From Candidatus Fermentibacterota bacterium (lineage in GTDB: Bacteria > Fermentibacterota > Fermentibacteria > Fermentibacterales > JCC-6), in the NCBI GenBank assembly GCA_963845085.1, contig CAWJQI010000001.1, positions 384,001 through 448,000 on the forward strand: a stretch of DNA of 64,000 nucleotides, written 5' to 3'. Below the pieces are notes generated by a model. That model had not been told where the DNA came from, did no database searches, and was given only the letters and a program-made list of their open reading frames with translations. The position numbers and the translations under genes were made by a program. This document shows, piece by piece, positions 47,585-64,000 of this stretch (positions are counted from its first letter, which is position 1; each line of letters opens with the position of its first letter).

Positions 47585-48916
47585 ATGGGGGGTGAGTGGG
47601 TCGAAGCTAGGCTGGACGAAGCATGTAAGTTGATTACAGACGGTGCCCACTATTCTCCAAAAGACGATCCATCAGGATTGCCGATGGCCTCTGTTAAGGA
47701 TCTTACCCGTCATGGAATCAATATCAAGGGATGCAGACGGATTTCCCGAAAGGACTTCGAAACGCTCGAACGCCAAGGTTGCGTCCCAAATCCGGGTGAT
47801 GTTCTGATGGCCAAGGAGGAAACTCAGCACTTGATACTGTCTGCGTTCATCGTTCGACTGAACAGGTTGTGTTGCTGTCATCAATCGCAATTCTACGACC
47901 AGGTTCACGAGTGATTTCGGATTACCTTCGGTATTACTTGGATGCACCACAGATTCGTGCTCTTCTGAAAAACGGATTTCGATCGGGAAGTGCAATACCC
48001 AGAGTAGTATTGGTGGATTTTCGACGAGCGCCAATCGTTCTACCTCCACTCCCCGAACAACGCGCCATCGCCCACATCCTGGGCACCCTGGACGACAAGA
48101 TCGAGCTGAACCGCCGCATGAACGAAACCCTCGAAGCCATGGCCGGGCCCTTTTCAAGTCCTGGTTCGTGGACTTCGACCCCGTCCGGGCCAAGATGGAA
48201 GGCCGCTGGAGGAAGGGGAATCCCTGCCGGCCTGCCGGCAGACCTGTGGGAGGTTTTCCCGGACAGGATGGTGGACTCGGAGCTGGGGGAGATCCCGGAG
48301 GGGTGGGAGGTGAAACCCATCGGGAACTTAGCAGAGCTTGTCGGTGGAGCACTCCAAGCACAAAACGGACCGAGTACTGGGATGGTGGTACTCATCATTG
48401 GGTCACGCCGAAGGACCTCTCCGGACTTCAATGCCGGTTTTGCTTAACACTGAGAGTAAGATCACCGACATGGGCTTGTCACAGGTCAGTTCAGGTTTGC
48501 TGCCAAGGGGATCAGTTCTTCTTTCATCACGCGCTCCTATTGGCTACTTAGCCATCACCGAGGTGCCAGTAGCAGTCAATCAGGGCTTCATCGCAATGAA
48601 GGCCCGTCAGGGTATATCAAATCTTTTCCTACTACTATGGGCAAGTGCGGCACATGATGAGATCGCGAGTCAAGCCAACGGCTCGACGTTCGTGGAGATC
48701 AGCAAGTCCAGCTTCAGACCCATTCTTACCATCGCGCCACCCGCCCCAGTCATGCACACCTTCGACCGTGTAACGCGTTCTATGTATCTCAAGATTGTCG
48801 ATCATGAACGTGAATCCCACACCCTCTCCTCCCTCCGCGACACCCTGCTACCCAAGCTCATCTCAGGGGAGATCCGGGTGAAGGACGCCGATAAGTTCGT
48901 GGAAAGGGCCGTCTGA
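47585..48916 (+). CDS. hsdS: Type I R-M specificity subunit (frameshifted)
   Basis: [72 protein letters not shown]. Confidence 0.93.
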
Positions 48917-48918
48917 TC

Positions 48919-49912
48919 ATGGCTGAAGAGAAGAACCCTGTTTTCCGAATGTCTGGTGCATCAGAGCTGAAGGGTGTGCCTACACCGAGCACTTCATCCG
49001 CGGAGGCTTCGCCGGTATTGGCTGGTCCGAAATCACCGAAGACCTGAGCACCGTCACCTCCCGGGAAGAACTCAATGCCCTGGTGAGGAAGTACAACCCT
49101 GACACTCAAAGCCCCATTGTTATCGGCAACTGGGTCGGCCAGATCGCCCGATTCCTCCTTGAGATACATGCTGGGGATTACGTCATCACCCCTGCTGTGG
49201 ACTCCGAGTGGCTGCATTGTGGTGTTGTCGAGCCTGATCCCTCCTACTTTTACTTCACAGGTGACGACGGGTGCCGCTTCCCCCACAGAAGACGGGTGAA
49301 GTGGTCTGAGAAGCGTGTCAAGCGAAGCGACTTCTCCGTTCCCTTCCAGAACACCATCCGTTCTTTGCTGTCAGTGTTCACCATCTCCCAGAAGGAGGAG
49401 TTTCTTCATGTGATAGGCAGGAAGGATCTCGCCCAGGAAAAAAAGCCGCTTCAGTACGACAGCTATAAAGTTGTCCTTGAACAGATCCTGGAGCTGGATG
49501 CCCACGAGTTCGAGATCCTGGTCGGCCATCTCCTGACTGCCCTGGGGTTCGAGGGTTCCGAGGTAGTCGGGAAGACTGGAGACGGCGGTGTGGATGCAGT
49601 CGGCGAGCTGAACGTCTCCAACCTCGCCAAGGTGAAAGTCTTCGTGCAAGCCAAGCGCTACAGCCTGGGTTCACGGATCAGCGCCAGAACTGTAAGGGAG
49701 CTTCGACAGGCCGTACCCTTTGGAGGCCAGGGAGCGTTCATCACCACCGCAGACTTCCAGGCGAAGGCAGTAGATATAGCTCTTGAACCAGGCTTCCCCA
49801 GGATCGGGCTAATCAACGGCCGACAGTTGGTGGACCTGCTCATCGAACACTGGTCCGACATCCCACAGGACTTCCAGGAGAGGCTGGGTCTGAAGCCGGG
49901 ATTGGTAAGGGG

Positions 49913-49916
<4 letters not shown>
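48919..49916 (+). CDS. Mrr-like type IV restriction endonuclease (frameshift near the 5' end)
   Basis: FEILVGHLLTALGF..GKTGDGGVD..VQAKRY..FITTADF..LINGRQLVDL Mrr_cat motifs. Confidence 0.85.
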
Positions 49917-53055
<3,139 letters not shown>

Positions 53056-53261
53056 ATACTCCAACTATCCCTCCCCCTACTGTCGCATCAAAACCGGCGT
53101 TTGTGTTGCATATAAAACCAGCGATGACACGTTCTTCGACCGCAAAGACGGAGAATAGCCCAGCCGCCAACGTCAGTCAATAAGGACTGATTACCGTTGT
53201 TCAAATGTTGATGCAATGTGTGAGATGAGGGTCTGGAGGGGCAGGTTTACGCAAACCGGCG

Positions 53262-53822
53262 TCAGACAGGTATCAGAACCGCCGGCAGGGAATCATGACT
53301 GGACAGCTTGTTGCAATGGTAACGGTGTTTTTCCCCAAGTTCGGCAATAAGGAGGTTGGCCTGCTCCAATGAGAGCCTTTCCTCGATTACCGCAAGGTTC
53401 AACAGGTCTCGGGTGGTGACAAGTCTGTCCAGAATCCCGATTCTCCTGCTGCTGTAATGAAGCACCTGTTCTTTCGTCACATGCGAGAATACACCCCTCT
53501 GTAGCTGCATAGGCAAGGCTCGAAGCCTCACCTTCGCCGAGACCGGCTTGCCTAATAGATAAGTGAAGATTCACAACATCAATTGAATCAGGGTCAACCA
53601 CCTTAAGTGCCCCTGCCTCCAGAAGAGTGTCCAGCATTGTTCTCTGAGCCGGATCCATAATCTCTTTGAGAACGCTCCGGGTGATCACCAGCCGGAAGTA
53701 CACGCTTCTGTGAGTATGGGAAAACTCTTCAGACGCAGGAAATTGATGAGAATGCAGCTGTCCGCCACCAGCAGGGGTGTTTCCCGCTGCTGCTTTGTGG
53801 GCGGTGAAGGATGGCTAACCAA
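53262..53822 (-). CDS. PIN-domain (DUF3368-like) protein, frameshifted
   Basis: LVADSCILINF, V..E, LGEGEASSLAYA..LACDE. Confidence 0.7.
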
Positions 53823-55050
53823 TGGGCTCCAGAGACGAGACTGCCTCCTCCACCTCTTCCCTGCCAATATCCGCCAAGGAAGCGATCTCGACAATTCTTC
53901 CGGTGGTCACCAACCCCCTTCGATAGGCTTCCAGTGCCAGGCCCATAAGCCTGTCCCTGAAACTTGATCCCTGGTCTTCCCTGCAGATGGAAGGTGACCG
54001 GAACATCCCATTGAAACTCTTCAAACCGCCATTTCTGAGACTACTGAGAAAGCCGTCCCTTTCCTTTTCCGAAAGAAGACGGATGTTGGCCAACCTGTAC
54101 ACAGCAGTTTCGGGGCTTACCCCGAAATGATCCGCGAGCAGAAGGATATCGTAGAGCTGAATGCTCTGCTCCACGGCAATGTTGCGTTCGTTTGCAGAAA
54201 CCTCGGAATGCTCATTAAAGGAAGAGTACTCCACCCGGGAAGGCTTCCCCTTGCCACAGGCATGAATGAAACGCATGAAGCCTTCTTCAGGCGCGAGAAA
54301 CGCTGCAGCAAATGAATTGGCTCTGACCTCACGCAACGCATCAGCATCGGAATTCTGGCTGATGACCACCCTGGAATCGTGCCTGAGATCAAGAAGAACA
54401 TGGGCGAATTCATCGCCAGGGAAAACCTTTGTCTTGCCGGAGAGTGGCTGGAATTGACAAAAACATGGAACCCGTTGTCTTGCATGATGGAGATACCCGA
54501 TATCTCCGCAGAGAGGGGTACGAGGCTCGCGCATACACCACTATCAGACAGAACGTTGACGACATTCTCTATCGGAGCGTAGCCAAGCCCAAGTCTCTGC
54601 CGTTCCTGAGCAGCAATCCTCTCCCCTTGCCGAATTGACTCTATCTTGGAGAAAGGGGTCTGCATCCTGTAGCATGGCATTGATTCGGATGCCCGGGGGA
54701 ACCGCAAGCTTCTCCTCCAACCAGGAGACTTCCTGGCCGATCCTGACGCACTTCCGAACACAGTCCTGAGCTTCTTCATTCTCCTGAAGACCCGGATCGG
54801 CCCTGAGTAGCATAACTGTTGGGTCAATACCTTCGGGACTCGCCAAAAGAGATTCCAAACCGCACCCCAACCGGTATGCCATGTTCTCGAGCACCGCGAT
54901 TCCGGGATTCCTCATACCCGACTCGTACGAAGCCAGAGCGGATCGGGACACACCAAGCCATCTGGCCAGAGTTTCCTGGGAGAGACCCTGTCTCTCCCGG
55001 AAGCCCCTCAGCCTTTGCGCAAGACTTTCTTCAGTCAACGTATCCTCCAA
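53815..55050 (-). CDS. Xre-HTH + ImmA/IrrE metallopeptidase protein, frameshifted
   Basis: LRGFRERQGLSQETLA..VSRS.LASYESG HTH; RQRFSLA(H)EFAH (one base missing) and E.RAN.FAAAFL.P. Confidence 0.85.
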
Positions 55051-55481
55051 TCACTTGCCCAGTAAAGGCAGGCTGGCTGGAGTGAGTCCATCCAAAACCT
55101 GGTGTGATAGAAAGCCGAAGAGAAAGGCCACTAGAAGACAGAGAAGAACAAACATAACTCCCTTCCTGTATTCCTCCTCCTCTCGCGAGCTGTAGAAACG
55201 GGTTTCAGTCTCGCTTTCGGCAATGCTTCGGATGCCATGCAGGCACTCCGAGACCATCACAGAAGCCCCAGTTCCTGCCGCAACGGAATGCCAGATACTG
55301 CGATGGTTTGGGCAATTGGCAGGTTCCAGTTTATCGGGTACAGCGGAACCGAGAGCAGAGGCCGCCAGCATCCCCACTTCCAGTACTGGATTGAGTGCTC
55401 GGCCAACTGCCTTCCTGCAGGCCAGTACCGCCGGAAATCCAAATAAACGCCTGCAGTGGTATGAACAACTTTTCCTGGCAT
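55051..55481 (-). CDS. Metal-dependent membrane hydrolase (YdjM/DUF457-like), frameshifted
   Basis: MPGKVVH start after AAAGGAGGTGA; S.VPD, HRSIWHS, SHQVLD.LTP..LPL motifs. Confidence 0.75.
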
Positions 55482-55506
55482 GTTTCACCTCCTTTCCTCC
55501 GAGAGG

Positions 55507-55535
55507 ATCATACAGCATGTGTCATAGTTTGTCAA
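55507..55535 (-). promoter_or_regulatory. Near-consensus sigma70 promoter
   Basis: TTGACA (55535-55530), 17 bp spacer, TATGAT (55512-55507). Confidence 0.75.
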
Positions 55536-55844
55536 TTCTTGCCATTCCCGGTCATACCTTTCACGAGCAAGCCACTGAAGGACTATGCTCGTGACGGCAA
55601 ACCCGATTTAGAATGAATTTTCAGTTGGTTTGTCTGAGAAAGGATGTCTGACTTTACCCGTTACATTCCATGGCAAATCCTGATTCCAAGCTGTTTCGTA
55701 CACTGGAACCTTGAAGTGGCGCCATTTTCGATACAGTTCGTTGGTCAGTTTTTACCAGACTCAGGCTGCTTCATGGTTTCCGATTTGCCAGCTTGAGTAT
55801 ATGCTTCTGTCTCCAAGAAATCAGAAACTTCTCTCTATACTGAA

Positions 55845-55925
55845 TCAGCCCAGTTATCTGCGTGCCCCTTCCATGTCCCTGAAACTCTTCAGGCAAACCT
55901 CCTCTCGTACTGCACCGTCCGATGT
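55845..55925 (-). mobile_element. Tiny degraded remnant resembling an IS3-family transposase C-terminus
   Basis: Reads RTVQYE/EEVCLKSFRDMEGARR*LG*F, similar to the IS3 R-T-V-K-Y-E-E-V-Y-L motif. Confidence 0.35.
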
Positions 55926-56052
55926 CTGCAAAGGGGTGCCAATTCAGGTCGGGAAGGTTGGTCTCATCTTCGGATGATGCTGCAATTGGCATTCATCCCT
56001 CAAGATGTGCTCGTCAGCAGCACTCACAACTCAGAAGCCGGAACTAGGGATC

Positions 56053-57124
56053 TCACGGAACCTCGTACAAAAGAACCTGCACAAACTCCGCTGAAGGGTC
56101 GAAGGTGAACCCCGCCATGCCCCAAGGGCTGATTCGGATGTCCAGGTATCTGCCATTCACAGGAGTTCCGTCAATCCTGACGTAAGTGATGAGATTGCCA
56201 TTCTGATCGTAAACACGAAAAAGGGGCGGATCGGATCCACCTACTCTGGCCCAGATCAGGGAGTTCCTGTCGATGCCCAGGGAAGTCACCGTAAGCCAGG
56301 ACTCCTGCGGGGTGTAGGTAATGCTCATACCCAACCGGTTGGCAAAGCTGGTGTAGTATTCCTGTTCCCTGTTGGTGTCCTCTTCAGTCAACTCTGCCAG
56401 GGGGAATTCATCCTCGATCAAATCAAGAAGCTCCCCTTCAGGTGAGCACTTCAGGATTCTGAGTTGTGATTCCGTCGACTCCGAAATGTAGACATTACCT
56501 TGAGCGTCAACGGTTGCAACAGGTTCCTCAGTACACATTCGATAAAGCTGCCTTCGGAGTGGTCAATCCTGCTGGAGTCACTCCAGAACACCACTGGAAG
56601 GGGGTTACCCGCATTGTACAACCCGTATTGTGCGGTGCGAACCGGAACCTGCCCTGCGATGAAGGCCCAACTCCTGATAGCTGTGAAAGTGCTATCGCGG
56701 TTGCCAAGCATCTTATGCAGCATCGGTCGGGTGTAACTGTCGTTGAGTCCCAGCCACTCGGCGCTTTCAGCGTTGAATGTGTTCAATCCCCTCGCGTCAG
56801 AAACAAACAGAAGTTCAGACTGGGTAAGTGCAACACCGCAGGGCTCGCTGAATTCACCCGGACCTTCGCCTTTCTTCCCATAGCACATCATCAACTCACC
56901 GGAACTTGAAAACCTTCTAACTTCAGCCCGCAAAGGATCCACAACGAAGACCGATCCGTCAGGTCCATGACAGATATCTCTAACACTCGCGAACCCGTAA
57001 TCACTGTAGAAATTCTCGTCGCCTATACCACCTGGTGAGCTATGACGAGAGTATCAGGTTGCTCATCAGTCACATAACTCTCCGGTTGATTCGCACACGA
57101 GGTAATGAGAAAAACAACCGTCAT
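56053..57124 (-). CDS. Six-bladed beta-propeller/NHL-like lipoprotein C (frameshifted)
   Basis: Lipobox-like FLITSC, DGSVFVVD, YGKKGEGPGEFSEP, VDAQGNVYI, VYDQNGN; pieces in three frames. Confidence 0.75.
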
Positions 57125-57287
57125 TGCGAAACAGCTCTCAGTTTCGAACCAACCACGCAATGCTGGGGAGATGGCATGGGCAAACCTCCACTGGTGCTGC
57201 CACCCTTCATAATACTTTCTACTACTTGTTCGCCAGCGATCTGAAACTGGGCTGCACAGGAAGAGTTACTGGGAATCTCTTCAAGAC

Positions 57288-57945
57288 TTATTCTCCACCC
57301 GTCACACCCTTATCCCTGAAATAAGCAGCCAGCCTTTGCCAAAGCCGTGAATGCACCTTCGGTCTGTTTCTTGTTATCTCGAACCATGCGGCATCAGGGT
57401 ACCGGGCGTACAACGCCTGATCTTTCTCAGAAGATGGTGACCGGTCCGCTTCCCTGATTCGATTTTCTGGATGGTGAACGGTGAGAAGTCAAAAGACTAA
57501 CCCGAACTCCCGAAGTGAAAGACCCAGGTCTTGTACGGAACTCCCTTGCCTCTTCTGCACCGAAGTTCTCCATTGCAGCCGGCCTCGAATACAAGGCAGG
57601 ATGGTCCACGCCTGCCCGATGGTTGTCAGTAGTACGAATGGATCAATCTCATAAGGACTTATCCCGGAAGCAGCGCAGTACTCCGGATAGGCAGGGTTTT
57701 CCCTTGAAGGGATCCTGTCCTCTAAAGGAGGGAAAGAGCTGTTCCAAGAAGAAGCTCTTCCGGGCGAGGGGAAGTTCCGGTCCGACAGACACTGCGTCCG
57801 GTTGCCTGAGGTAAGCGTCTTCGTATGTAAACAGGAAACCTTTCTTCCCGTCAGGATCTGTGTGCTGTTCAAGCCTGCCGGCATAGTCACGCGTCCTTCT
57901 GCCTTCCGCAAAAACATCAACGCCGGGCATTTCACGGTCGCGCAT
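57288..57945 (-). CDS. HipA N-terminal (HipS-like) domain fused to C-terminal Xre HTH, frameshifted
   Basis: AGRL..F.F.Y..YL..SVGPELPL..LFPSF/EDRIP then LGLSLREFGLVFDFSPFTIQKIESG. Confidence 0.75.
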
Positions 57946-58851
57946 TATTCAGCTCCTCCGCTCTCTTCATGATAAGCCTCTGGATCGATTTTGCTCGTTC
58001 TTCTGAAAGGAATTTCCAGCCAGTAAGCGTCATGAACCTGTCCACATCAACCCGTCGCTTGAACTCCTCTACCACGGAAGCAAAACCAAGCCTTCCGAAT
58101 TCCACGACATAGTCATTCATCTCCGGATCGGGGTTTGCGTTGGTGGCAATCCTCCCCCTCGGGCTGTGATCAGCCCGAAGGAAAGCAGCGTCCTCAATCC
58201 CGAGGTAGGAAGGATTGTCATAGAAGGGTGCCAGAGTGTACTGCCCACCCTTTTCGATAAAGCCCAGGTTCCTGCCGTGTCTGTCGTGGTTGCCTATCAG
58301 AGAATCGAAGAGGCACAGTTTGATGAAGCGCTCTATTTCAAATAGCCTGCCGGTTTTCTCGCCAATCACGCCAATCAGCGTCTCGCAATCGAATGAACCG
58401 CCCACGATGAAGTGGTGGATGTGTTGCAGCGATTCTTTCCTTCCCGTCGAATGAAGTTCCTCACCGCCAGCGCTGACACGCCGTTGAACCGGATCAGAAC
58501 GAAGTGAGGTATTCTGATCCCAAGAGAGTGCGCGATCTGGTTGCAGAGGTGCTCGGTGGCGGGAAGCTCGGGATACTCCTTCTCCTCAACCTTCAGAATG
58601 AAAGAAACGCCTTCCAGCCTGGCATCGTACTTCCTGAACTTGCCCTGAAGAAAGCTCGACACGACATCAGCGTCATTAACCGGCCGGCCGACTGAGCTCG
58701 TCCTGCGTCCGTTTGCTTACGTGCCAGGCCCGTGTAATTCGGCAAGCCCATCCACACCAAATGATTCCCGAAAACAGGCCGGATGCAGGCCGTAGTGTTC
58801 TTCCTGCCCTGCCTGCATCTCTTCACCGCAGTGAAAGCATCGCATTCTCAT
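57932..58851 (-). CDS. HipA-like kinase with N-terminal CxxC/HxxC, frameshifted
   Basis: MRMRCFHC..LHPACF, S.LQGKF.K, ILK..YPELPATEHLC, LIGNHDRHGRN, LAPFYD. Confidence 0.85.
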
Positions 58852-58868
58852 GGCTCCCTTCACAAAGG

Positions 58869-58897: not shown

Positions 58898-59047
58898 GAT
58901 AGCACAACAAATGCCTGTTGCATTATTGCTACACTAATGCGGGAAGAAACCTGGTTGCGTCTGCTTCAAGGGCCTGCTGAGAATGGCCGCTCAGTGATGT
59001 GTTTGCCTGATGGGGTGGCTTCCGGGTACGGTTCCCCCGCAGCCGCT

Positions 59048-59419
59048 CTACCCCTCCACCGGCCTGACCATCCCCACCTTCAAACCAAGCTTCCCGACTA
59101 TGGGAAGGGGTTTCACCTTTCCACCGGATGCGTTCACGAGCCCATTGATGAACAGGGTCAGAAGAGGGATGCCGATGAACAGGCAATAGATAATCATGAA
59201 GATCAGTCCGATCAGCGGGATGAAGGAGAGAATCCAGAGGAAACCGGAAAGCATCCATGCCAGCATGATCACAAGGCTCTGCTGGGCGTGGTAGAGGACG
59301 TATTTGTTATCCTTGCTCGTAAGGTAGGCGACAAGGAAGCCCGGTAACCCGAAATAGGCCACCGTTGCCATGGCCTTGCCCTCCTCGATCTCCGCGGAAG
59401 TAATTCCAAAATCGTTCAT
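59048..59419 (-). CDS. DUF4870-like small membrane protein
   Basis: K.MA..AY, YVLYHAQQSL, GLVNA..GK.KPLPIVG; GGAGG RBS. Confidence 0.8.
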   Translation of the reverse strand: MNDFGITSAEIEEGKAMATVAYFGLPGFLVAYLTSKDNKYVLYHAQQSLVIMLAWMLSGFLWILSFIPLIGLIFMIIYCLFIGIPLLTLFINGLVNASGGKVKPLPIVGKLGLKVGMVRPVEG

Positions 59420-59444
59420 AGGTTTCCTCCAGTGAGATATTCCT

Positions 59445-59912
59445 TCAGGGCGACCACTCGCTGAACCTGATCTCCGTTACCATTCCGGCTTCATCAAGCA
59501 TCAGAGTCAGGCGGCACCCAGCTCCGGATTCGGTTACGACCTCGCGGACGATTGCCTGCCCGTCCCGCGAAACAAGTTCCGGCATCTGCCCGCAGGAAAG
59601 CACTAATCCATAGTCCAGGGCTTCTTCCTCTGAGACGGGATGGCCGGGAACGATCGAAGTGACAATTCCTTCAGTGCCGAAGCCCTGTCTTGTCAGAACA
59701 GCATCTGCGAACTGATATCGTTTGATGTAGTAATCCCATGGCTCGATGCCGAAAGCTTCGGAAGCCTCTCCCCAGGTCGGGATCAGAGCGTAGTTTTCCT
59801 GCGAGAAGTCGACGTTCCTGAATGAGGTTTCGTCAGCCAGTTCGATGACATCCTGCGCAATGCAGGTGCCAGACAAGTGCAGCAGCAGTATACCAAGAAG
59901 CAGCCGTCTCAT
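59445..59912 (-). CDS. Hypothetical secreted protein
   Basis: Signal peptide MRRLLLGILLLHLSGTCIAQ and acidic mature region. Confidence 0.65.
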   Translation of the reverse strand: MRRLLLGILLLHLSGTCIAQDVIELADETSFRNVDFSQENYALIPTWGEASEAFGIEPWDYYIKRYQFADAVLTRQGFGTEGIVTSIVPGHPVSEEEALDYGLVLSCGQMPELVSRDGQAIVREVVTESGAGCRLTLMLDEAGMVTEIRFSEWSP

Positions 59913-60013
59913 GAGCCCCCCCATTGCCTTGCATTCCCGTCAACCTGCCCGGATCGAGGCGCAGCATACGCGGGAACAGCCTCAAGGTCAACGAGCAGGG
60001 GTGCCGCCGGTTC

Positions 60014-61150
60014 TTACCTGAGGAGATAGAGTTTCTGAAAGCCCTCTTCAGGGTCCAGTTCCCACGCGAGTATCCCGTTGGGTGTGATCTCGGTAGCCCA
60101 GCTCCAGCTGTCCTTTGGAAAAACGGCCTGACGAAGCGGGTTCCCATCGAGGTCGTAGATGTCGAAAAAGATGTCGGTACGGGTTCCCCGCCTTACCCAC
60201 AGGTTCCGGTCCGGTCCGACCCCGACATCGCTTATCATGTTCCTGTGCTGACAGGGATGAAAGTCAAAGCCCAGGGGCCTGCCACTGAGGCTCTGGTAAG
60301 AATAACTCGCAAAAATGCTCTCACGCTCTATCTCTTCACCGGTTTTCTCCACCGGAGCGATACTGCGCGTGATGTTGAGCACCTCCGCACCGGTTGAATC
60401 CCACCCCATGACCCGGTATTCAAACGGATCGATGGGAGCGAAGTAGACAACTCCTTCCCCATCTCCGCCGGTGATCGGCAACTCAAGGCATTCATATCGG
60501 AACCATGCGCTTGGATTGTCATTGTAGTCGGCTTCCGTCATCCTCAGGGAGTCCTTCCAGAGAAGGATCTCCCACTCCCTTTCACCCCAGGCATGCATGC
60601 CGATCGTATGGCGGATGAAGTCGTTGTTCTGATCACCGTCACACCTGCACACAGAAAGCCATGAATTCGTAATGGGAGTGATGTGGTAGGGGGCGTTTTC
60701 TATCCACAGCCCTAATTCTTCCACGAATTCGAGTGAATCATCGAAGACGATGTAGCCCATCTTGTCAATCGAATTGATGCAGACCCGTCCATCCGGCATT
60801 ATGAACAATCCAGTGACATGGTTTGATTCCCCTGGTCCGCTTCCTCGGCGGGAAACCTGCCTGATATAGTTGCCCTCAAGGTCGAAGACCTTAAGACAGG
60901 CGGCGATCTCATCAAGAACAAATATCCTTCCCTGATCGTCGATACTCGCATCGATGATCGACCCGAAAATTGATGTTGAGTCGCCCAGCTCCCGACCAAT
61001 TTCAAGGGCACATTCGAGGGTGTCAACAGGAAGCGCAGCCTGATATTCATTTGTTTCTACGGGATGGTTCCCTCCGCTGCATCCTGCCGCGAGCGCAATG
61101 CAGCAGGCGAGGACGGCTGAAATGCGTACCGTGGCAGTACCTGTTCCCAA
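60014..61150 (-). CDS. Six-bladed beta-propeller lipoprotein B
   Basis: Lipobox LAAGC, IDDQGRIFVLD, FDLEGNYIRQVSRRGSGPGE; paralog of 62159-63331; start assumed at TTG 61150. Confidence 0.85.
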   Translation of the reverse strand: MGTGTATVRISAVLACCIALAAGCSGGNHPVETNEYQAALPVDTLECALEIGRELGDSTSIFGSIIDASIDDQGRIFVLDEIAACLKVFDLEGNYIRQVSRRGSGPGESNHVTGLFIMPDGRVCINSIDKMGYIVFDDSLEFVEELGLWIENAPYHITPITNSWLSVCRCDGDQNNDFIRHTIGMHAWGEREWEILLWKDSLRMTEADYNDNPSAWFRYECLELPITGGDGEGVVYFAPIDPFEYRVMGWDSTGAEVLNITRSIAPVEKTGEEIERESIFASYSYQSLSGRPLGFDFHPCQHRNMISDVGVGPDRNLWVRRGTRTDIFFDIYDLDGNPLRQAVFPKDSWSWATEITPNGILAWELDPEEGFQKLYLLR

Positions 61151-61191: not shown

Positions 61192-61371
61192 TCAATCCAT
61201 CTCTCCCATCATGCACTGGGGAGACGGCATTGCCCCGCCGGGCCAGCACATGATGTAGTCTTCCCCACCGCTGATGCAATTGCTTTTTGGAATCACTCCA
61301 TTCTTGCAGTCCTTGATACCTCTGCCTGTACTGCCGATTTCGACAAGCTCAGGGTTGCTCCACTCCATCAT
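61192..61371 (-). CDS. Putative RiPP precursor P1 (ScmA-like, four CxxG motifs)
   Basis: MMEWSNPELVEIG leader; core CKNG, CISG, CWPG, CMMG; RBS AAAGGTGA. Confidence 0.8.
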   Translation of the reverse strand: MMEWSNPELVEIGSTGRGIKDCKNGVIPKSNCISGGEDYIMCWPGGAMPSPQCMMGEMD

Positions 61372-61567: not shown

Positions 61568-62122
61568 TCATCCACCTTCTTTCCCGGAGTTTCCCGGCAT
61601 TCTAAAACCGATGGGATCGCATTTCTTCGGCTTCGGTGACTCAATAAGGCTTTTAATGCCTTCCACCATGCCGACCAGAATGGAGTCGTGCTGTATGACC
61701 CGCTCTTCGAGTTTTTCAAGCCTGCGAGAGAGAACCTCATTGGAGAATACCAGTTCCCTCAACTTCACGAACACCCTAATTATGAACACACTCATCCTGG
61801 CGGCTTGTTCCGAGTTCAGAACATTTGCTGCCTGAAGGGCTCCGTGCTCGGTAAAAACCAGAGGGAGCTTTCTCCTTCCTCCCCAGCTCGATCTTGTTGT
61901 CGCATTTTGCGACATCAAGATCATGTGCTCTTCCCCTGTCAACTGAAACATGAAATCTTCAGGAAACTTGGAAATGTTTCTTCGTACCTGTTCATTCAAC
62001 CGTCTCGTCTCCACACCGTACAGCTTGGCAAGATCAGAATCAGAAATTACACTGACGCCGCGGACATTGATGATGCTCAATGCAATCTTCCGCTCAACGA
62101 GGGCATCAGATTCTTCGGACAA
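61568..62122 (-). CDS. ORF6N-domain DNA-binding protein
   Basis: VRGVSVISDSDLAKLYGVETRRLNEQVRRN..FPEDFMFQLT, FTEHGA, IIRVFVKLRE, PIGF. Confidence 0.9.
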   Translation of the reverse strand: MSEESDALVERKIALSIINVRGVSVISDSDLAKLYGVETRRLNEQVRRNISKFPEDFMFQLTGEEHMILMSQNATTRSSWGGRRKLPLVFTEHGALQAANVLNSEQAARMSVFIIRVFVKLRELVFSNEVLSRRLEKLEERVIQHDSILVGMVEGIKSLIESPKPKKCDPIGFRMPGNSGKEGG

Positions 62123-62158
62123 TTCTGTTGAGGTTCCCTTCGTTCATCTTGATGACAA

Positions 62159-63331
62159 TCACCTGATCAGGAAAAGTTTCTGATAGCCCTCTTCAGGGTC
62201 CAGCTCCCACGCGAGTATCCCGTGAGGGGTGATCTCGGTAGCCCAGACCCAGCTGTCCTTCGGAAATACGGCCTGACGAAGCGGGTTGCCCTCGAGGTCG
62301 TAGATGTCGAAAAAGAGATCGGTGCGAGTTCCCCGCCTTACCCACAGGTTCCGGTCCGGTCCGATCCCGACATCGCTGATCATGTTCTTATAGGGAGACG
62401 GATGGAACTCGAACATCAGGGGCCTCCCGCCCCTCAGTGGAAAGTAGTCGTTCACGTACGAGATCTCGTACTCGATCTCCGAGTCTGTCTTCAGAACGGG
62501 TGCAATGCTCCTGGTGAAGTTGAGGATCTCAGTGCCTGTCGAGTCCCAGCCGATCACCCTGTACTCAAAGGGGTCAACGGGTGCAAAAAACGTTCGCCCT
62601 GCTCCATCGCCTCCGGGAGCGTACAATTCGAACCAGCAGAAAACATAGAATTCCGATGGATCTCTGTTGAATTCGGCATCACTAATCTCCAGGGAGTCCT
62701 TCCAGAGAAGCTCGGTCATCTCGGCCTCGCCCCATCGGTAGATGCCCACAGTATGTCGCGTGACATCAGGAGTCGGGCTTCCATCATACCTGCAGGCAAG
62801 AATCCTGTCGTTCGAAATCGGGGTGACATGATAGGGCGGGTTTTCACACCAGAGCCGGACTTCCTCAAGCAGTTCGAGTGAATCGTCAAACATGACGTAA
62901 CCCCATTTGTTTGCCTCTGTGACGGCAATCCTGCCATCGGGCATGATGAAGAGTCCCTGGGGACACATAAGTTCACCCGGTCCGTCTCCGCGCCTGGACA
63001 GCTGCTGCAGGTAGTTTCCCTGCAGGTCGTACACTTTAATGCAGGCGGCTATCTCGTCCAGCACGAAAATGCGTCCCAGGTCGTCAATTCCGGCGGCGCG
63101 AATTGAGCCGAAGATCTCTGTGGAGTCGCCGATCTCCTGACCAATCTCGATAACTGCTTGAAGTGTATCGATTTGAGCGGCGATGTCGTCATCCAGACCC
63201 TTCCCGGGATCATCGGAACCACAGCCTGAAAGCGAGCAGAAAGCCAGAAAGCCGTTCAGGATATGACTAAGGGTACGGGCTGCCCCGGGAAGGCAACATG
63301 CTTGGGTGACACAAATCTGTTTCAAGGCCAT
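62159..63331 (-). CDS. Six-bladed beta-propeller lipoprotein A
   Basis: AGGAG RBS, lipobox LSGC, IDDLGRIFVLD, SRRGDGPGELMCP; paralog of 60014-61150. Confidence 0.85.
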   Translation of the reverse strand: MALKQICVTQACCLPGAARTLSHILNGFLAFCSLSGCGSDDPGKGLDDDIAAQIDTLQAVIEIGQEIGDSTEIFGSIRAAGIDDLGRIFVLDEIAACIKVYDLQGNYLQQLSRRGDGPGELMCPQGLFIMPDGRIAVTEANKWGYVMFDDSLELLEEVRLWCENPPYHVTPISNDRILACRYDGSPTPDVTRHTVGIYRWGEAEMTELLWKDSLEISDAEFNRDPSEFYVFCWFELYAPGGDGAGRTFFAPVDPFEYRVIGWDSTGTEILNFTRSIAPVLKTDSEIEYEISYVNDYFPLRGGRPLMFEFHPSPYKNMISDVGIGPDRNLWVRRGTRTDLFFDIYDLEGNPLRQAVFPKDSWVWATEITPHGILAWELDPEEGYQKLFLIR

Positions 63332-63363: not shown

Positions 63364-63548
63364 CTACCAGATACTGCTTCCCGGAGTGCAGACCGGGAAG
63401 GCAATGGCTTCGCCACCCCAGCATTCCACATAGAAGAGTGTTCCTCCGCCGACGCAATCATTTCTTCGGAGCGTTTCCATTTACACATGTTTTCTTGAGC
63501 CCTATTCTCCCCATCCAGGGTGATCAGTTCAGGGTTGGTCCAATCCAT
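63364..63548 (-). CDS. Putative RiPP precursor P2 (ScmA-like, four CxxG motifs), split by two apparent indels
   Basis: Frame 1 MDWTNPELITLDGEN, frame 2 GLKKTCVNGNAPK, frame 3 NDCVGGGTLFYVECWGGEAIAFPVCTPGSSIW*; RBS AAAGGAG. Confidence 0.75.
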
Positions 63549-63607
63549 GAAGACATCTCCTTTCCTTATTGCAGCAGCTTTAAATGCTTCCAAACGGGCG
63601 GCCAGCA

Positions 63608-64000
63608 TCAACAGCATGCTTCATAGTGATTCACTTTCAGTCTTCTGGTAGCGGGAAACAGGTTTGCCTTCTCAGCCTCTTCGCAAAACCAGAACGGTGC
63701 CCAGAGGCTCTTCGAACGGTAGTAATTCTGGGCTACGCAGCTTCCGTTGCATGCCTTTTTAACCAGGCACTCACTGCAGATGCCCTCGAGTTTTTCCGGG
63801 AGACCTTCGCGGAGCGCTTTCAACACTTCGGAATTCATCCAGACATCTTCCAAACTGTCGATGCTTGAATGCCCGAACACGAGTTCGGGAACCGACTCCC
63901 CGATGCCGCAGAGCGAGTACGAACCGTCGGCAAGAACGCCAAGGATGTTCTTGATTCCGCACACTCCGCAACCGCCGCCCTTTTCGCCAAGCATTTTCCC
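63608..64000 (-). CDS. Radical SAM/SPASM protein C-terminus, SynChlorMet ScmF-like (runs off window)
   Basis: CGIKNILGVLADGSYSLCGIG..LVFG, LREGLP..LEGICSECLVKKACNGSCVAQNYY..LWAPFWFC...LFP recalled as typical of ScmF. Confidence 0.8.
   Translation of the reverse strand, partial: GKMLGEKGGGCGVCGIKNILGVLADGSYSLCGIGESVPELVFGHSSIDSLEDVWMNSEVLKALREGLPEKLEGICSECLVKKACNGSCVAQNYYRSKSLWAPFWFCEEAEKANLFPATRRLKVNHYEACC

Follow-up and report, generated by a model that had tools for sequence, protein, structure and literature searches.

A putative radical SAM precursor peptide gene spread over three reading frames in a Candidatus Fermentibacterota genome

A 64,000-nucleotide stretch of contig C1 from a Candidatus Fermentibacterota genome (hereafter the window; the source genome is G000, and C4 and C5 are further contigs of it) carries a gene for a small peptide with four CxxG motifs, P2, directly behind scmF, which encodes a radical SAM/SPASM protein (Table 1). 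Taken as a whole, the locus is probably that of a precursor peptide made for radical SAM cross-linking, its gene broken by what are likely errors in the sequence.

P2 and its peptide family

From ATG to TAG the P2 span measures 185 nt on the minus strand. It is divided among three frames, of which one holds the leader, another CxxG motif 1 and the last motifs 2-4; once these are joined, the peptide has a W-x-x-P-x-L leader followed by the four motifs at a spacing of 10/11/11. Neither 5000 shuffles of this sequence nor 5000 random genome segments gave a four-CxxG chain at this spacing with up to two frame switches allowed, and the chain is therefore not a product of chance. A profile made from the peptides of 11 relatives, with P1 and P0006 (see below) left out, scored the in-frame P2 at 80.7 bits, P1 at 66.5 bits and the P2 ORF as called at 18.1 bits, while 200 shuffles gave a maximum of 10.2 bits. 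A sequence-only reading of the window had proposed that a second precursor is hidden across three frames, and on this frame analysis, shuffles and profile agree. The four CxxG motifs which it named are correct, and the homology it saw between P2 and P1 is that of true paralogues, 40% identical and with the W, the P and four C..G motifs common to both. That P2 is a real gene is close to certain. Scans for promoters (6 vs. 3.1 expected) and terminators (4 vs. 4.2 expected) were both uninformative.

Table 1. Features of the P2 locus (window coordinates).
Feature	Position	Strand	Remarks
Second propeller lipoprotein	60014..61120	-	Directly after P1; 62% identity to the first propeller; approximate start
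P1, intact paralogous precursor	61192..61371	-	59 aa; four CxxG motifs, spacing 10/10/11
ORF6N-domain protein	61568..62122	-	PF10543, 107.5 bits; between the two peptide-propeller units
Six-bladed (DUF5128/NHL-like) propeller, predicted lipoprotein	62159..63325	-	Pfam DUF5128; lipobox LSGC; intact frame; directly after P2
P2, ScmA-like precursor peptide	63364..63548	-	60 aa once in frame; extra bases at 63489 and 63459
Ribosome-binding site AGGAG	63557..63561	-	8 nt 5' of the P2 ATG; by reading the sequence
scmF 3' part (radical SAM/SPASM)	63608..64000	-	TIGR04251, 309 bits, profile 152-352, cut-off 400

A short-word protein search with P1 recovered P1 alone, and tblastn of P1 across the genome, which had been proposed as a means of finding more copies, returned only pieces of P2. 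Matches at C5:763920 and 765132 were rejected, as each falls within a long ORF (354 and 362 residues). The region C5:762979-766271 holds three tandem paralogous lipoprotein-like genes, S41 peptidase-like by eye. Scanning the whole genome for runs of four CxxG motifs gave P1 only, and the precursors on C5 described below escape it since their motifs are spaced differently. Across relatives, a search with the peptide profile found 8 peptides in 6 of 70 genomes. All 13 peptides that were aligned carry four cysteines and, close to the start, W-x-x-P, with CxxG spacings of 10, then 10-11, then 9-14, and their core is highly variable outside C and G.

Origin of the two extra bases

A phmmer search of 1.84 billion representative proteins with P1 as query gave nine matches, namely P1, seven further peptides 60-80 residues long and an unrelated protein of 1904 residues. 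One of these, P0006, comes from a single Logan contig of 1029 nt and equals the translation of the window at 80 of 80 residues once positions 63489 and 63459 are removed, an identity that takes in 20 residues upstream of the P2 start. Among 16,471 pairs of single-base removals tried, this pair alone gave no mismatch over the 80 residues. On the minus strand the extra bases are C at 63489 and G at 63459. The removal sites first suggested, 63503 and 63463, leave seven mismatches to P0006 and so were misplaced, and the junction residues then read as GLKKTC and PKNDC are actually RAQEKC and PKKYC.

Contigs from related strains point the same way. One from run X1 lacks both extra bases, and one from run X2, which belongs to another study, lacks 63459 and does not reach 63489. 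Each has a depth of 2-3, and is thus weak alone, and comes from a strain other than the source; no listed run covered half of the stretch, and there was no RNA run among those listed. In the coding part X1 has four substitutions, two of them synonymous and the others D2E and T4S, both of which shift towards the family consensus; the X1 strain therefore differs from that of P0006. A scan of JGI metagenomes with P0006 gave two weak matches (38%), and the ESM Atlas a top score of 0.86 to unnamed clusters, which serves as a lead only.

As an intact P2 exists in public sequence data, the two indels are most likely errors of assembly or sequencing. The sequence-only reading had left error and real inactivation undecided; the full match to P0006 and the related contigs shift that question strongly towards error. 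Neither extra base lengthens a homopolymer, and there is no amino-acid change beside the insertions in 80 codons compared with P0006. Frameshifts are also found nearby on the contig: the 998-codon alignment of hsdR (window 49928-53053, ~10 kb from P2) contains 15 frameshifts and not a single stop, and C1 430-440 kb has seven frame switches away from stops vs. 0-3 per bin in the other 42 ten-kb bins. In the interval 47869-58863 of the window this type I restriction gene is one of many in fragments, along with hsdS-like, Xre/IrrE-like and HipA-like genes and a propeller gene. Frameshifts are absent from the 3' half of scmF, both propellers (none in the first against P0132) and an RluA gene beyond scmF, so errors are not generally dense in the immediate surroundings of P2. 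Programmed frameshifting in P2 was considered and rejected, as relatives simply lack the extra bases.

Could the insertions instead be real, P2 having recently become a pseudogene as the cassette decays, with the maturase truncated in the strain too? This is improbable, but several observations fit it. Homology to scmF passes the window edge and ends at C1:448246 (equivalent to 64246 of the window), ~0.7 kb upstream of P2, and the first ~165 residues are missing. With the contig breaking inside scmF, G000 gave no match for scmD and no matching copy of scmE (best 141.5 bits, elsewhere on C5), and the 5' half of the P2-linked scmF was not found in its assembly. A degraded sister locus stands at the start of C4, where C4:40-1622 copies window positions 59036-60105, 60980-61089 and 61793-62216 at 93-98% identity, while both peptides and most of both propellers are absent. 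It is either a strain variant or a decayed duplicate, and since it repeats part of the P2 locus, the end of C1 may be a thinly covered strain branch. The cassette has also decayed in relatives, as set out below, and the clean frames of the genes flanking P2 are in keeping with a genuine lesion.

Against inactivation, a pair of insertions outside homopolymers, separated by 30 nt and without any amino-acid substitution in 80 codons compared with P0006, is unlike neutral drift, in which substitutions outnumber indels. The scmF break, moreover, falls where the DNA becomes Nitrospirota-like, close to the contig end. The last ~9.6 kb of the contig (G000:C1:448246-457844) has a coding fraction of 0.34 under the genome's own model; RluA beyond the break is 71-75% identical to genes of four Nitrospirota genomes (among 5 loci found), and across the ~9.5 kb past the break 93 bp were matched, in 1 of 69 relatives only. 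This interval is probably a chimeric contig end. The assembly is 88% complete. Assembly error remains the preferred account of the two extra bases.

The cassette in relatives

Matches to scmF were found in 14 of 61 genomes searched. The four closest (G035, G024, G037, and G014), at 59-63% identity, each have an intact scmF with scmE upstream of it and, directly after scmF, an intact peptide gene with four CxxG motifs and then a propeller; the order scmD-scmE-scmF-peptide-propeller is seen in G035, G024, and G014 (scmD-like gene). All four ScmF proteins exceed the TIGR04251 cut-off of 400 bits (G024 560, G035 580, G037 549, and G014 552 bits), and ScmE is above the TIGR04250 cut-off in both genomes tested (G024 544 and G035 598 bits). 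The PqqD-like ScmD of G035 scores 122.7 bits against TIGR04248 (cut-off 100), whereas the candidates of G024 and G014 fall short of the strict threshold of E 1e-35 that was used. In G014 scmE is split over two frames (L036, G014:C30), and in G020 a truncated scmD stands directly before a propeller (L061, G020:C76); the cassette is therefore often lost or broken.

These scores link the locus to SynChlorMet, a catalogued system of ScmD, ScmC, ScmE, ScmF, and ScmA (NCBIfam TIGR04248-TIGR04252) in which, as here, a small Cys/Gly precursor adjoins the scm genes. There are differences. No ScmC exceeded the TIGR04249 cut-off (125 bits) in the 70 genomes of the order, where the best score was 57 bits, and none was seen in loci L033-L036. 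The ScmA model TIGR04252 (cut-off 35 bits) has no match in P0006 or P1 and is likewise missed by P2; it weakly matches 2 of 13 family members (best E 1e-4; the G014 peptide scores 22.3 bits). The leader is of the W-x-x-P-x-L type, a propeller lipoprotein follows each precursor and the precursor-propeller units are duplicated. Judged by these model matches, the P2 locus is a lineage-specific variant of the SynChlorMet cassette, with partial membership because P0006 and P1 miss the ScmA model and no ScmC above cut-off occurs in 70 genomes. The new part is the ScmC-less, propeller-linked and duplicated arrangement in Fermentibacterota; the system itself is not new in kind. A search of main article texts, few of them from subscription journals, found no experimental study of any Scm enzyme, and PMC13692751 was set aside as it concerns a different system.

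G000 also has a second, distant ScmE/ScmF-like pair at C5:573379-576860 (L003), scoring 141 and 153 bits. It is accompanied by a gene weakly similar to ScmC and by two Cys/Gly precursors, whose leader is Y-x-x-P-x-L. G002, G005, G011, G014, G020, G039, G041, G042, and G045 have a related cassette, the precursors of which contain 4-5 CxxG motifs.

Propeller lipoproteins and a possible maturation route

The AlphaFold model of the propeller has six blades (pLDDT 92.5). In Foldseek its closest matches are NHL domains, which are non-enzymatic, and no enzyme appears near the top. Named homologs are annotated as “6-bladed beta-propeller” and come from Ca. Aegiribacteria and Fermentibacteria. By Pfam DUF5128, NHL fold and these homologs it resembles the DUF5128/NHL propeller lipoproteins of Fermentibacterota, from which the present subgroup differs in often standing behind a CxxG precursor. 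A propeller comes after each of the 8 peptides found in genomes, also at G020:C25 and G037:C104, where the ≤1.5 kb seen upstream has no scm genes. The link is one-way: peptides precede propellers, and most propellers lack a peptide, none being found upstream at 26 of the best 30 of 50 propeller matches (one of these loci shows only 134 bp). In a tree of those 30 loci plus three added peptide-adjacent rows, all seven peptide-adjacent propellers belong to one half of 16 rows (support 99/94), with the remaining 17 rows having none, a pattern that is biased because the query is itself peptide-adjacent. Within that half 9 of 16 propellers have no peptide directly upstream, and over the whole tree the adjacency label is not clustered, since its 6 changes were matched or bettered by 219 of 500 shuffles.

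Elsewhere in G000, a radical SAM match is found no more than 3 kb away at 3 of the 9 remaining propeller loci vs. 5.2% of random segments (binomial ~0.009), counted with the P1 and P2 propellers left out, two fragments taken as one locus and two C4 remnants dropped; a shared location in variable islands could be an alternative cause of this proximity. Propeller lipoprotein genes at C4:732392-734903, C5:858782-861572, and C5:237222-239522 lie ≤1.2 kb from radical SAM matches. In G024 (L034) a similar group of radical SAM, propeller and ABC-transporter genes is found near the Scm cassette.

How might such a cassette act? PqqD-like proteins and Y/W-x-x-P-x-L leaders have a role in substrate binding. 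Here the W-x-x-P-x-L leader would be held by ScmD, itself PqqD-like, with the core offered to ScmE and ScmF. These two would link the four cysteines, which stand at regular intervals, to carbons of nearby residues, forming thioethers as in sacti- or ranthipeptides. Cleavage of the leader and export of the product would follow, through proteins encoded outside the P2 locus. The core cassette has no protease or exporter gene; ABC-transporter genes lie ~3.3 kb upstream in G035, and one lies ~0.6 kb upstream in G024. At the cell surface the lipoprotein propeller behind each precursor might bind the mature product, for immunity or capture. This is the weakest step, and a functional partnership between propeller and peptide is a tentative suggestion.

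Formation of thioethers by SPASM enzymes on Cys-bearing precursors is an established chemistry (PMC10114670). Thioether chemistry on the P2 core is fairly likely, going by the SPASM enzymes and the four invariant cysteines. The locus resembles the sactipeptide and ranthipeptide systems AlbA/subtilosin, PapB/freyrasin, and QhpD/QhpC in its SPASM radical SAM enzymes and Cys-bearing peptides (PMC10114670). It differs in its C-x-x-G motifs, its 10-11 residue period and its two enzymes with a free PqqD-like protein, and the enzymes are of other families, G024 ScmF scoring just 74 and 65 bits against AlbA and PapB (cut-offs 850 and 340).

An alternative of quite low probability is that the cross-linked peptide serves the propeller as a small subunit, either structural or carrying a cofactor, much like the thioether-cross-linked gamma subunit of quinohemoprotein amine dehydrogenase, an enzyme that has a propeller subunit. 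The constant place of the peptide before a propeller, even where scm genes are absent from the short stretch seen, and the gathering of peptide-adjacent propellers in one half of the tree fit this idea, as does the thioether chemistry of QhpD/QhpC (PMC10114670). It is opposed by the peptide-free members of that same half, by the lack of clustering over the whole tree and by structural matches that are best to non-enzymatic domains; a core so variable outside C and G, and a propeller with a lipobox beside a peptide that has no signal sequence, also argue against it. Slightly less probable still is that the peptide stays an unmodified disulfide- or metal-binding miniprotein while the radical SAM genes act elsewhere: the literature search found no biochemical work on ScmE or ScmF to set against this, but in relatives the peptide keeps a fixed place after the genes for a PqqD-like protein and two SPASM enzymes, and its leader is conserved where its core varies, which is how a modified precursor is built.

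A precursor matured by radical SAM enzymes therefore remains the preferred reading of P2. As posed, its recovery is that of a mis-assembled gene, of value to annotation and not new biology. The loci of G035 and G024 offer more, since three enzyme-side genes and a 60-residue substrate, without ScmC, make a compact set whose reconstitution could reveal the chemistry. Should the propeller indeed bind the product, a lipoprotein family that has expanded in an uncultured phylum would gain its first role. More speculatively still, and on balance doubtful, the radical SAM-modified peptides and propeller lipoproteins of Fermentibacterota might work as matched pairs, either of ligand and receptor or of toxin and immunity protein. 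Every one of the diversified CxxG precursors would then have its own propeller, one ScmDEF set would mature several precursors in trans, orphan propellers would be retained defences or receptors, and the coupling would recur with unrelated radical SAM systems.
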